From: Escherichia phage SpoonbillGilly
DNA: 64,000 nt
Sequence record: PP925828.1
Reading direction: 5' to 3' (one strand)
The notes under the pieces are model-generated. The model was not told the DNA's origin and made no database searches. It worked only from the letters and a program-made list of their open reading frames with translations. Below are positions 12,598 through 15,883 of this stretch, piece by piece. How positions within the stretch are numbered: position 1 is the first letter of the stretch; each line of letters begins with the position of its first letter. The position numbers and the translations under genes were made by a program.

Positions 12598-12970
12598 ATT
12601 TATATTGAATTGAGAGACATTAGTAAAAATTGATTTTGCTAATTTTTCTTGTTTACAATCCGCAATACGGAACAGTTAGGCTGCCCCATTAAGGGTTGTT
12701 TTAACTATTACTAGTGTTTATACTGCATTAGTTAATTATCAATTAAGTGATCTGCGTACCCTGAATTCGGAAAGGTAAATCCAAACCGTGCATATTTAGC
12801 TCGTTATATAGGCAGAGCTTTATATGGGGGTGCGAACGAAAAGAGCAGCGAATGGTGACACGTCCAGTAGCCACCTACCAATAGGATAGTGAGGGCAATC
12901 AGAATCGGCTTAGCGGCCAATGACCTAGGTTCTGATCTGGATAAGAGTTAAGAGAGCGCAGCACTGAGGT

Positions 12971-15883
12971 ATGATAACTTATTCATACTGCTTGATGATG
13001 ATTAATGTTTGTGTAAATGGTAGTAATAGTTGTTCTATTCTTTTGAATAGTCCTAAAGAAAGATATTCGAATAACCAACATAGGAGTATTGTTGTGTTCT
13101 CAATCCTACAAGGTCACGCAGGATTTTCCAGAGATAAAGCTACTGGCATCTGGAAAGAGATCAAAGTGGAAGATTATACCTTTGCAAAGCGATTCTCTAA
13201 AGAGCATCCAGAGGGTAAACCAGCTTCCATGCCCTTCAAATTTGATGTACTTGAAGAACTTGACCCGCAAAACCTTGCTGAAATGTTACCTATCATGCGT
13301 CGTCTTACCAAAGACCCGCATATTGTAGCTATTCGTGGTAAATGTTTAGCTCCAAAAGATAATGTGCGTCGTACCAGAGGAAACTTTAACGTATCCAATC
13401 CTAGTCATATTATTGCTATGGACGTGGATGGTATTGTAGATACTGGTGGCTATGACAAGTTTAATCTTGTTGGCATGGCACGTCATATTATTAAGATGTT
13501 GAATAGTATTAGTGAGGATATGTTTCCTCTTGATGCAGGGTTTATTGCTCATGCATCGTCTTCGGCTGGATTAAAACCAGGTATCCGAATGCACTTAATG
13601 CTAGAATCTAATGTCAAGGTAACGCAGGGACAGTTAAAGTTCTTATTTACATCTATCAATGACAGTAGTAAGCAAAAGTACGGCTTTGATATTGCTGACT
13701 TAGCTTATTATTCTTCTGTTCAGCTTCACTATTTCGCAGATCCCTTATTTGATGATGGTATAGTCGATCCGTTTAAAGCGGAGAATAAACCACGTCTTGT
13801 GTATGTTAAGGGTTCGAAGGTGAATCTACCTAATAACCTAGTTGACTTTGAAACAACTAGAGGTGAGTTTAAAGAAGAGTTCTACTCCTTACTTGACCAG
13901 ATTAAAGGCAAGAAGGCTGCATCTGATAAAGTGGAAGAAACCATCAGCGAACTAGAAGAAGCTGAGGATGGAGTGTACCTACGTATTATCCCAAAACTTT
14001 ATCACAGAGCGTTAGAAGATGGTGTTGATTTTACGTGGTTGGAACGTGAGATTAAACCAGCCTTATCTGAATATATTGCAACTAAGGATAATAGTCGTAA
14101 TATTCAAGATTACTTTAATAACGGTCGTAAGCAGGCTCTCAAAGCCTTTGTAAATAACTCCAAACGTGAGATTCCACCAAACTTAAAAGGTGTACCATTA
14201 AAACGTCTAGACACAGATTCTCCACCAGAAGTTCCATACCTGAAAATTAACATTGTACCACCAAAAGGACATTTAACATTTGTTAAGGCAAGTCTTGGTA
14301 CGGGTAAAACTACAGCAGTAACTAAGTGGCTAGATGCAGGTGTTCTTCCAGGAAACTTTATTGCAATCACAAATACTAGGGCACTTGTATCTTCTAACGC
14401 GAAGAAATTCGGTGCTGGCCAGTATGATAAGTCAGTTGATATGCTGAACTTCAAACGTGGTGCTATTGATCGTATGTCTTCAACTATTCACTCTATCCAT
14501 AAGTTCAAGAGCTTTGTGGGTCAGATTGATACGATCTTTATTGATGAATGTGACGCAGTAATGAATGATCTGTTATTCGCTCCGGTTGTTAAAAACCGTC
14601 GTGAATGTATTCAGGTTCTTCGTGATATCCTTATTACTGCTAAAACTGTTATCTTATCTGATGGTGATATCAGTGCAGAAACGATTGAAGCCTATGGTTC
14701 TTTGATTGATTTTGATAAACCAGTTGCATTCTATAATCATCACCGTAAAATGCTGGCGAAAGCTCACGCTTATGAATTCCCTGACGAATCCAGTATTTGG
14801 GTTGCACTTCAAACATCTCTAGAGATGGGTGAGAAGTCAATCCTAGTATCTGACTGTGGACCGGATGAACTGAATGAAAAAGGAATGGCATTACGTCGTA
14901 ATACTGGTGCGTTAGTTAAAGAAATTCACTCAAACTCTACGTCTGATGTAGATATCCGACGTATTCTGGATTATACAACTAATGAGCTAATTGATCAACA
15001 GATTGATTGTTTGTTATGTAGTCCATCTGTAACGAGTGGTGTTGACTTTAACTATTTTGATAACGTATTCGTAATCACTAGAACCTCAAACCAAGCGCCA
15101 AACATGCGTTTCCAAGCAATCAGGCGCGACCGTGGTGCTCAGAATATCTATTACTTCATTGATAAGTCTACAAGTGGATTCTCTGCCGGTTCCGAGCAGT
15201 ATAATATTGACGAAGGTTGGATTGAGTTAGCCCAACAACTGTACGCACGTCGTCGTGAGCTGGAATCTAGAAACTATACTAGTACTTTGCGTTATTATCT
15301 GCTTGATCAGGGTGCAACTATCGATATTTTCAGCGAAAGCTGGGGAACTATCGAAGGTGCAGGAAAAGAGTATACAGAAGAGCGAATCAAAGCTATTTTG
15401 CACTCAACTCCTGAATATTGTGCACCACGTCATGCAGATGCCTATGAAGCCAAGTTACTTCTGGTTCGCTATTATCATCTGGATTCTATTAAAGATGTAA
15501 CAGTGGAACACGTTGAACAGTATATCAAGGATAAACCAAACGATAGAGCTGCATTCTTCCATAAGATGCACGACATGTTCTGGGAAGATATTAAAAAGTG
15601 TTCAAACGTAACAATCAAACCGTTTATCGAAGCTCTTAAGAATAAGAAGAAGGATTTCTTCCTTAAGACAGGTCAGAGCGCTAACCCAAAATATGCTCGT
15701 ATGTATCTTGGCATGATGGGTATCGGTAAAGATCTGGATACGGAAAAGATTGTGGACTGGTACAGAACTTACTGTAAGATCGAATGTATGCCGATTCCAG
15801 TTAAGTTTATGACAGATGAAGAACGTCAGATGCATGAGGAAGCTCTTGCTGAATTGGGGGCTAGAAATGACAGCGAAGAATAA
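12971..15883 (+). CDS. Putative replication helicase / origin-binding ATPase (SF2-like); annotated start probably too far upstream
   Basis: Walker A SLGTGKTTAV, Walker B IFIDECDAV; 970-aa ORF but GTG at 13094 has an AGGAG SD 7 nt upstream. Confidence 0.7.
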   Translation: MITYSYCLMMINVCVNGSNSCSILLNSPKERYSNNQHRSIVVFSILQGHAGFSRDKATGIWKEIKVEDYTFAKRFSKEHPEGKPASMPFKFDVLEELDPQNLAEMLPIMRRLTKDPHIVAIRGKCLAPKDNVRRTRGNFNVSNPSHIIAMDVDGIVDTGGYDKFNLVGMARHIIKMLNSISEDMFPLDAGFIAHASSSAGLKPGIRMHLMLESNVKVTQGQLKFLFTSINDSSKQKYGFDIADLAYYSSVQLHYFADPLFDDGIVDPFKAENKPRLVYVKGSKVNLPNNLVDFETTRGEFKEEFYSLLDQIKGKKAASDKVEETISELEEAEDGVYLRIIPKLYHRALEDGVDFTWLEREIKPALSEYIATKDNSRNIQDYFNNGRKQALKAFVNNSKREIPPNLKGVPLKRLDTDSPPEVPYLKINIVPPKGHLTFVKASLGTGKTTAVTKWLDAGVLPGNFIAITNTRALVSSNAKKFGAGQYDKSVDMLNFKRGAIDRMSSTIHSIHKFKSFVGQIDTIFIDECDAVMNDLLFAPVVKNRRECIQVLRDILITAKTVILSDGDISAETIEAYGSLIDFDKPVAFYNHHRKMLAKAHAYEFPDESSIWVALQTSLEMGEKSILVSDCGPDELNEKGMALRRNTGALVKEIHSNSTSDVDIRRILDYTTNELIDQQIDCLLCSPSVTSGVDFNYFDNVFVITRTSNQAPNMRFQAIRRDRGAQNIYYFIDKSTSGFSAGSEQYNIDEGWIELAQQLYARRRELESRNYTSTLRYYLLDQGATIDIFSESWGTIEGAGKEYTEERIKAILHSTPEYCAPRHADAYEAKLLLVRYYHLDSIKDVTVEHVEQYIKDKPNDRAAFFHKMHDMFWEDIKKCSNVTIKPFIEALKNKKKDFFLKTGQSANPKYARMYLGMMGIGKDLDTEKIVDWYRTYCKIECMPIPVKFMTDEERQMHEEALAELGARNDSEE

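Follow-up and report, generated by a model that had tools for sequence, protein, structure and literature searches.

What, if anything, is encoded in the long non-coding gap in front of the helicase gene D2 of the T5-like Escherichia phage SpoonbillGilly (PP925828.1)? In the 64,000-nt stretch of this genome analysed here (the window; positions count from its first letter, and the strand shown is the + strand), the gap runs from 12478 to 13093, between a terminator and early promoter on one side and the GTG start of D2 on the other. An earlier note on this DNA had offered three candidates—a structured 5' leader or small RNA, a replication origin beside the helicase gene, or the remnant of a lost gene. 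That set is partly upheld: a leader or small RNA is strongly supported by compensatory changes in several genera, by G·U pairs that obey the rules of the + strand and by a promoter that is always directly upstream; the lost gene finds no support; and the evidence on an origin points neither way. We consider it very probable that the gap encodes a conserved structured RNA element. Judged from sequence, this is most likely a new structured RNA, predicted to form the leader of the D2 mRNA.

A multi-branched fold in front of D2

The structured element spans ~430 nt and contains ~12 helices. Its architecture was drawn from minimum free energy (MFE) folding and group-wise alifold predictions on two sequence types that diverge strongly in the middle, and the same fold was obtained for both. 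From 5' to 3' it consists of a 5'-terminal hairpin (S0), a 5' domain (D1), a long closing helix (P2), a multi-branched core of ~220 nt closed by helix P3, a terminal hairpin (T) and a hairpin at the ribosome-binding site (RBS), which holds the Shine–Dalgarno sequence (SD):

12612–12650, + strand: S0, 5'-terminal hairpin (GAGAGACAUUAGUAAAA...UUUUGCUAAUUUUUCUU), from MFE and group alifold
12655–12699, + strand: D1, 5' domain, stem ACAAUCC/GGGUUGU around a near-invariant AUACGGAACAGUnnGGCUGCCCCAU, from alignments and covariation
12703–12744, + strand: 5' arm of P2, the long AU-rich closing helix (38 bp, 8 G·U)
12745–12966, + strand: multi-branched core closed by P3 (12747–12757 with 12956–12964), from a full-length covariance model match and pair counts
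12758–12762 with 12827–12831, + strand: Pa, a three-way sub-domain holding hairpins a1 (12768–12788) and a2 (12791–12826)
12832–12846, + strand: hairpin b, within the core
12848–12858, + strand: single-stranded motif c, within the core, GAGAAGUGA in most lineages
12862–12867 with 12937–12942, + strand: Pde, enclosing hairpins d (12868–12897) and e
12899–12935, + strand: hairpin e, with a covarying lower stem, an asymmetric 3' internal loop and a 4-bp upper stem carrying CUUAGCGG
12969–12988, + strand: hairpin g, between P3 and the 3' arm of P2, with compensatory changes
12991–13031, + strand: 3' arm of P2
13035–13050, + strand: T, terminal hairpin (CUAUUC-UUUU-GAAUAG)
13076–13096, + strand: RBS hairpin (CAACA...UGUUG), with the SD AGGAG (13082–13086) in its loop and GTG 13094 at or after its 3' strand

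The short inverted repeats remarked on earlier are thus real helices, the longest repeat in the gap (12703–12723 with 13011–13031) being part of P2. Within hairpin e, the invariant CUUAGCGG lies at 12909–12916. Hairpin T is not an intrinsic terminator, because no U run follows it; a hairpin of differing sequence takes its place in every lineage, 39–46 nt from the D2 start codon in four of them. By direct reading, other sequences that can still pair occupy the position of S0 in Sugarland and L042, and the RBS hairpin is kept with other sequences (AACAU:AUGUU, ACAG:CUGU) in Sugarland and My1.

Two further features of the fold vary among lineages. The 3' internal loop of hairpin e (12919–12927) is pyrimidine-rich and in some lineages (CCUCCUUA in L042, CUCCUUA in My1, AUCCUCAA in DT57C), though not in others, looks like the anti-SD end of 16S rRNA; no consistent pairing partner for it was found across lineages. 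Some phages carry an extra 96 nt between S0 and D1 (insertion at ~12650/12651), an optional module with the 8-nt direct repeat TTTTTCTT on either side. It is present in DT57C (L004:966-1071) and likewise in L003 and L002, appears by eye to form a three-way junction of its own, and has no Rfam match. Of ~537 records, 51 have it, always as a single copy; they are spread across Epseptimavirus, Tequintavirus and phiR201.

Helices are maintained by compensatory change

The helices are kept through compensatory changes in at least five lineages. In a sequence-only MAFFT alignment of 15 sequences, RNAalifold recovered outer P2, P3 and hairpin e, with double changes in 24 of 35 pairs; examples of pair counts in P3 are GC:9/AU:6, CG:10/UA:4, and GC:7, AU:5, UG:2. 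The arms of P2 are wholly different sequences in nine lineages, and each arm pairs with its own partner at −30 to −44 kcal/mol, as against −12 to −29 kcal/mol with foreign arms.

Since MAFFT places the 3' strands of hairpin e out of register across genera, we used curated helix-only and covariance model (CM) alignments. The curated alignment comprised twelve helix segments in eight reference lineages, transferred to 47 sequences by plain sequence alignment. Across its 57 pairs, 99.3% of cells were paired (75.6% after shuffling; 34–46% in slid controls), 46 pairs showed changes on both sides, and the covariation score of 0.517 (0.150 shuffled) was reached by 0 of 500 shuffles, figures that have to be read as inflated given the hand-fitting of the references. 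Switches within clades, to which nothing was fitted, follow the same pattern: CUGCGU:GCGCAG to CUGUGU:GCACAG, CCCGU:ACGGG to CCCAU:AUGGG, GUCCAG:CUGGAU to GUACAG:CUGUAU, and CAU:AUG to UAU:AUA. In D1, the Sugarland group shows GG:CC to AG:CU together with CAU:AUG to UAU:AUA, and in hairpin g we observed GUAUGA:UCAUAC to AUAUGA:UCAUAU and AAGUGG:CCACUU to AAGGGG:CCCCUU.

A CM built solely from the cores of DT57C-type phages, L042 and My1—the clade of the window phage being absent—matched the window core at exactly 12745–12966, over its full length (E = 2.9e-5). It also matched phiR201 (3e-8), Sugarland (1e-4) and T5 (2e-4), with no other match in the 64-kb window or in control loci. In the CM-made alignment (67 pairs), 88.8% of cells were paired, compared with 64.4% after shuffling, and 52 pairs showed double changes. 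Four independent lines agree, on comparative sequence evidence, that the structure is under selection.

The fold belongs to the strand transcribed towards D2

The curated alignment contains ~144 G·U cells against 8 unpaired cells, and some U·G pairs, in D1 and in the CUUAGCGG stem, never vary. P2 of the window phage has 8 G·U among its 38 bp, and its variants among close relatives comprise 14 G·U-to-Watson–Crick switches and one double change, versus 2 A·C and 3 other mismatches. Because a G·U pair is an A·C mismatch on the opposite strand, the fold belongs to the + strand, which is transcribed towards D2; and because the G·U pairing fits that strand only, a symmetric DNA cruciform or a pair of transposon ends is excluded.

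A DNA-level feature without RNA function—cruciform, inverted-repeat remnant of a mobile element, or decayed gene—is more broadly refuted in large part, and we hold it to be highly improbable. In its favour are an inverted repeat of 21–41 bp around a ~290-bp segment, the HNH homing-endonuclease genes inserted next to the element in VAH1 and SP15, and the nearby 96-nt module with its direct repeat. Against these stand a single copy per genome and a single CM match in 64 kb, covariation of the internal helices as well as the outer ones, the 8 of 38 P2 pairs that would be mismatched on the other strand, and repeat arms that differ wholly between lineages yet remain complementary, the opposite of what transposon ends do. 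A miniature inverted-repeat transposable element or other transposon remnant was rejected on the same single copy, on P2 arms that covary rather than being conserved, and on the G·U asymmetry. A protein-coding gene or pseudogene was rejected as well: there is no + strand open reading frame (ORF) of at least 25 aa, indel lengths are not divisible by 3, and substitutions on one strand of a helix are matched on the other. These paired, not codon-like, substitutions and the lack of a conserved reading frame likewise argue against the lost gene.

RNA is the parsimonious form of the folded strand, since a promoter lies directly upstream in every lineage (VAH1 and SP15 included), a hairpin starts within ~8 nt of the predicted transcription start, and cUUCGg tetraloops are present in the Providencia phages. 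Single-stranded + DNA, such as the displaced strand of an R-loop, obeys similar pairing rules and is a candidate alternative to RNA.

Distribution of the element among Demerecviridae

The gap is matched by 537 T5-like phage records, every one within Demerecviridae, and the 5.5 kb surrounding it are 98% identical to Epseptimavirus and Tequintavirus phages. We aligned eight Markadamsvirinae phages and then added Sugarland, My1 and PSTCR5. Two blocks (12604–12710 and 13020–13060) are near-invariant within Markadamsvirinae and divergent in other genera; the ~300 nt between them have diverged in sequence almost to randomness, with their length kept and the CUUAGCGG island invariant. The D1 motif (GGCUGCCCCA) and CUUAGCGG lie 224–239 nt apart in every lineage.

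Homology at the level of the CM covers Tequintavirus, Epseptimavirus, Sugarlandvirus, Myunavirus and lineage L042. By manual comparison, Providencia (Priunavirus) and Proteus (Stubb, PM135) phages have P2, P3, Pa, hairpin e and T in common with these, and the Aeromonas phages TS3 and L059 carry an e-like GCUUAGCGG hairpin with compensating changes ~1.1 kb upstream of D2. In Stubb, ~260 additional nt, which contain a second CCUUAGCCG-like hairpin, separate T from D2. The Vibrio phages gave no match to the CM with filters off, and alifold gave no covariation signal on five Vibrio phage gaps, since four of these hardly differ from one another.

A long non-coding gap precedes D2 in all Demerecviridae genera examined, measuring 590–820 nt in enterobacterial phages, 700–1100 nt in Vibrio phages and ~1600 nt in Aeromonas phages. 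In distant members of the family (JSF10, L012:631-1731; TS3, L013:19-1608; L011:1006-1716) the gaps of 0.7–1.6 kb are ORF-free and strongly folding, and could hold a larger related RNA. Searches with the pattern GAACAGTnnGGCTGC...CTTAGCGG returned T5-like contigs only from IMG/VR, eight T5-like contigs and five chance matches from metagenomes, and four chance matches from 185,579 genomes; the CM rejected all of the chance matches from metagenomes and genomes. The element is single-copy per genome and was found only in T5-like phages.

Borders, neighbouring genes and base composition

In T5 (AY587007) the counterpart of the gap is flanked by ORF T5.107 and 'obp', and the record annotates only a terminator and a 'putative early promoter T5P32' in it. 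Two signals precede the element in the window:

12501–12521, + strand: intrinsic terminator of the upstream operon (DUF7415 genes), a 9-bp stem followed by a T run; the T5 terminator is annotated at the homologous place
12569–12597, + strand: early sigma-70 promoter, homologous to T5P32, with a predicted transcription start at ~12604

The promoter had been placed at these positions before, and its correspondence to T5P32 bears this out. It is of the extended −10 type (TTGCAG at 12569–12574, a 17-nt spacer, and TGaTATAAT ending at 12592–12597), and its −10 element is invariant across genera; a simple promoter scan missed it because the −35 element matches at only 3 of 6 positions. Each lineage examined has a sigma-70 early promoter, with the element beginning a few bases downstream. 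In VAH1 and SP15 (L006:416-868, L007:416-868) an HNH endonuclease gene stands in place of the second DUF7415 gene and the terminator, and a different promoter sequence is kept immediately before the conserved transcript start.

The claim of an ORF-free gap also holds, the ORF listing having no + strand ORF of at least 25 aa within 12613–12971; the − strand of the gap has two short ORFs only (43 and 38 aa). A 970-aa ORF called from ATG 12971 is the in-frame upstream extension of D2, without an SD. The start proposed in its stead, GTG 13094 preceded by AGGAG at 13082–13086, proves to be the one annotated in T5. All D2 homologues begin (MFSILEGH...) at a GTG or ATG that aligns with 13094 behind an SD, so the 970-aa call is evidently an artefact; in T5, moreover, a 1-nt indel in the terminal hairpin disrupts the frame of the extension. 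Annotation artefacts over the element recur in several GenBank records. In some, D2 is extended to an SD-less ATG (window 12971–13093; SP15, L007:1326), and in others, such as Sugarland (L008:1339-1461), 40-aa 'hypothetical proteins' are called within the element.

The downstream gene is T5 D2, with a match to Pfam Herpes_ori_bp. A match to the NCBIfam plasmid replication protein CyRepA1 extends over 316 residues, below the curated cut-off. The N-terminal half matches solely its own PHROG family, phrog_3712 'replication origin binding', with no informative match in Pfam or PDB. T5 D2 has been characterised biochemically as a bipolar SF2 helicase and proposed as a replication initiator (PMC3632103). 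Upstream of the gap (window 11102–12477) lie genes for a HAD_SAK_2 protein ('Swiss Army Knife RNA repair') and for two tandem paralogous DUF7415 proteins (phrog_2502).

The segment 12740–12960 had been singled out as GC-rich. Its GC content of 0.466 is indeed above that of its intergenic flanks (0.289 and 0.301) and of the window as a whole (mean 0.406), within the top 7% of 221-nt windows; the enrichment is modest, however, being no greater than in the neighbouring genes at 12000–12250 (0.46–0.49). This GC island is the core of the structured element. In the window at large, GC skew changes sign at ~34 kb and weakly at ~6–7 kb, the former probably marking where early genes give way to late genes transcribed in the other direction. 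The 64 kb contain neither tRNA nor tmRNA genes.

Comparison with known RNA families and origins

The Rfam check that had been suggested produced no family: an Rfam 15 cmscan with permissive filters gave no match at E ≤ 10 within 12478–13093. In the homologous gaps of 8 other phages (E ≤ 1) the sole hit was EF3314_EF3315 in My1, positioned over the terminator and promoter; its 28.7 bits compare with a gathering score of 100. Segments resembling 5S rRNA (GAGAAGUGA, CCCCAU and UAGCG) raised the idea of a 5S mimic. There was no RF00001 hit, and aligning 8 lineages locally with an approximate E. coli 5S rRNA sequence gave scores of 8–9.5 against shuffled means of 8.7–9.2 (p = 0.24–0.91), so that this identity was rejected. 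A retron msr/msd or an RNA template for a polymerase was considered because of a UUAGCG motif and the end-joining stem, which we take to resemble those of retron Ec86; it was rejected as neighbouring proteins have no reverse transcriptase domain and UUAGCG sits in a hairpin loop far from P2.

Literature searches turned up neither an account of the element nor a transcript map for T5. As a working definition we propose a D2-leader RNA family of Demerecviridae, recognised by a promoter-proximal position before D2, the D1 motif, P2, P3, the Pa three-way sub-domain and hairpin e with CUUAGCGG; the window sequence shows every one of these traits. Structured leaders and large orphan RNAs are both established kinds, and the element is a new family among them, unusual in being coupled to the gene for a replication initiator.

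A proposed leader of the D2 mRNA

How, then, might such an RNA work? Along the + strand the order is promoter, conserved fold, D2, and a terminator scan found no intrinsic terminator between the element and D2. Our tentative reading is a cis-acting processing and stability leader. Host RNA polymerase would begin the D2 mRNA with the element, which would act as RNA, in cis, on the message that carries it. The long AU-rich duplex of P2 would be an RNase III-type substrate, S0 would protect the 5' end, and a phage or host protein might bind at the invariant D1 and CUUAGCGG loops, so that the leader would determine where the D2 mRNA begins, how long it lasts and how it is translated.

The stem duplex of an RNase III site is at least ~20 bp; P2 measures 38–39 bp in DT57C and the window phage, and nine lineages have an equivalent helix. 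As in RNase III precursors (rRNA stems, T7 R sites, the lambda N leader), an imperfect duplex of ~38 bp flanks structured RNA between a promoter and a cistron. Unlike in these systems, P2 encloses a conserved core rather than rRNA, is far longer than T7 R sites, and would be cleaved only putatively. The element also recalls the T4 gene 32 pseudoknot and gene 43 operator, being the structured leader of a replication-protein mRNA with possible autoregulation. Those operators measure 20–70 nt and overlap or abut the RBS, whereas the element is ~430 nt long, with a core separate from the RBS hairpin.

Several observations weigh against a leader of this kind or soften the case for it. We infer the transcription start, the read-through into D2 and the processing from sequence features. 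No conserved pairing was found between the large element and the SD, and the RBS has a local hairpin of its own, so a direct translational switch is not evident. Known phage translational operators are far simpler than a fold of ~380 nt and ~12 helices. Proteus phage Stubb has a perfect 12/12 sigma-70 promoter between the element and D2 (L044:2435-2464), 36 nt before the D2 start; D2 could therefore be expressed there without the leader, which better fits an independent function. On the side of the evidence, the curated pairing figures carry the inflation already described. MFE z-scores (both strands, nine lineages) were weak, with no consistent preference for the + strand, and as they do not discriminate strands we did not use them. 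The membership of Providencia, Proteus and Aeromonas phages is by manual comparison only: with filters off, the narrow CM placed hits at the expected positions in them with non-significant E-values of 1.4–7.7.

A possible free-standing RNA

Some of these points would be accommodated by a free-standing, trans-acting non-coding RNA (ncRNA), cut in P2 by RNase III and/or after T, whose core of 280–380 nt would act elsewhere, D2 being merely co-transcribed; it might, for example, bind a protein of the phage or of its host and so serve host takeover, anti-defence or replication. This is well alive as an alternative, given the Stubb promoter, an RBS hairpin independent of the element and the very complex fold, and we regard it as doubtful rather than remote. 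Size, helix count, conserved junctions and invariant loops resemble those of large stand-alone structured RNAs more than those of operators, and a closing helix that unites the 5' and 3' ends is the classical design for precursor processing. Such an RNA fits less well with the absence of a terminator before D2; with strict adjacency to D2, at a fixed spacing of 39–46 nt in four lineages; and with the lack of similarity to any Rfam family.

Large structured ncRNAs of phages and bacteria—ROOL, GOLLD, HEARO, OLE and raiA—were reportedly described by Weinberg and colleagues in 2009 and 2017. Like these classes, the element is several hundred nucleotides long and rich in helices, conserves its junctions and loops, is recognisable through covariation, is carried by phages as they often are, and has a role that the sequence does not make obvious. 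It differs from them in having no Rfam 15 match, in being confined to one phage family as the leader of one gene, and in not lying near tRNA clusters.

A possible replication origin

The identity of D2 bears on another candidate, namely that the element is part of the primary T5-like replication origin, activated by early-promoter transcription through the region. The structured transcript would serve as a persistent R-loop or pre-primer, or else the displaced + DNA strand would fold into a loading or priming site for D2. We think this unlikely. Origins commonly adjoin the gene for their initiator, and D2 is initiator-like (Herpes_ori_bp, CyRepA1; proposed initiator, PMC3632103). The pairing rules of the + strand suit single-stranded + DNA as well as RNA, and the arms flanking the core are AT-rich (GC 0.29–0.30). 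The element lies at 59.1–59.6 kb of the 121.75-kb T5 genome, or ~48.5%; since all Demerecviridae are collinear, this central position is one observation and not many. Electron microscopy by Bourguignon and colleagues in 1976 is said to have shown first-round T5 replication beginning near the middle of the molecule.

There are no iterons or other notable direct repeats: an iteron-type origin was rejected because the gap has only four weak two-copy direct repeats (10–17 nt, 76–90% identical), and its AT-rich stretches are the arms of P2. GC skew does not switch at the element, the switch in the window being at ~34 kb. A herpesvirus-type origin was rejected because no repeated conserved boxes accompany a single UL9-box octamer, GTTCGCAC, at 12830–12837 on the − strand, in hairpin b. 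This octamer, which we take to be the core of the HSV-1 UL9 origin-binding protein (OBP) box, occurs twice in the whole window on both strands, against ~1.95 expected by chance, and is absent from DT57C-type phages. The 5'-terminal hairpin and the cUUCGg loops, in turn, point to selection on RNA.

Of ColE1 RNA II only the outline, a promoter followed by ~490 nt of conserved structured transcript, is present. The element resembles ColE1 RNA II, T7 phi1.1A/B and T4 oriF/oriG in having a promoter ~500 nt upstream and a long folded non-coding transcript beside replication genes; T5, too, uses a family-A DNA polymerase. A promoter scan found no antisense promoter-like site in the 5' 200 nt of the element, which thus differs from ColE1 RNA II in lacking a promoter of the RNA I type.

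In a more specific form, to which we give little credence, the element would be the T5-like primary origin by virtue of a folded nucleic acid and not of iterons, the fold being taken up by the early-promoter transcript or by the + DNA strand that this displaces, with D2 recognising the fold through the D1 and CUUAGCGG loops to load or prime. A bolder version still would make the RNA a dedicated cofactor or template for the N-terminal domain of D2.

Significance

T5 has long been a classical model, and phages related to it find wide use in Salmonella and E. coli biocontrol. In the records examined, the element is unannotated or overlaid by spurious small ORFs and over-long D2 calls; the annotation of D2 should be corrected to a start at GTG 13094 instead of ATG 12971. 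A conserved RNA of ~430 nt with ~12 helices would be a further one among the few large structured RNAs known from bacteria and phages. To our knowledge, no T5 origin has been mapped at the sequence level. Because the element stands at the entrance of the replication module, it offers a concrete, mutable candidate both for the control of D2 and the early replication genes and for the start of T5 replication. If true, the origin reading would give tailed phages a kind of origin that has not been described for them, one that is structure-specific and coupled to transcription.

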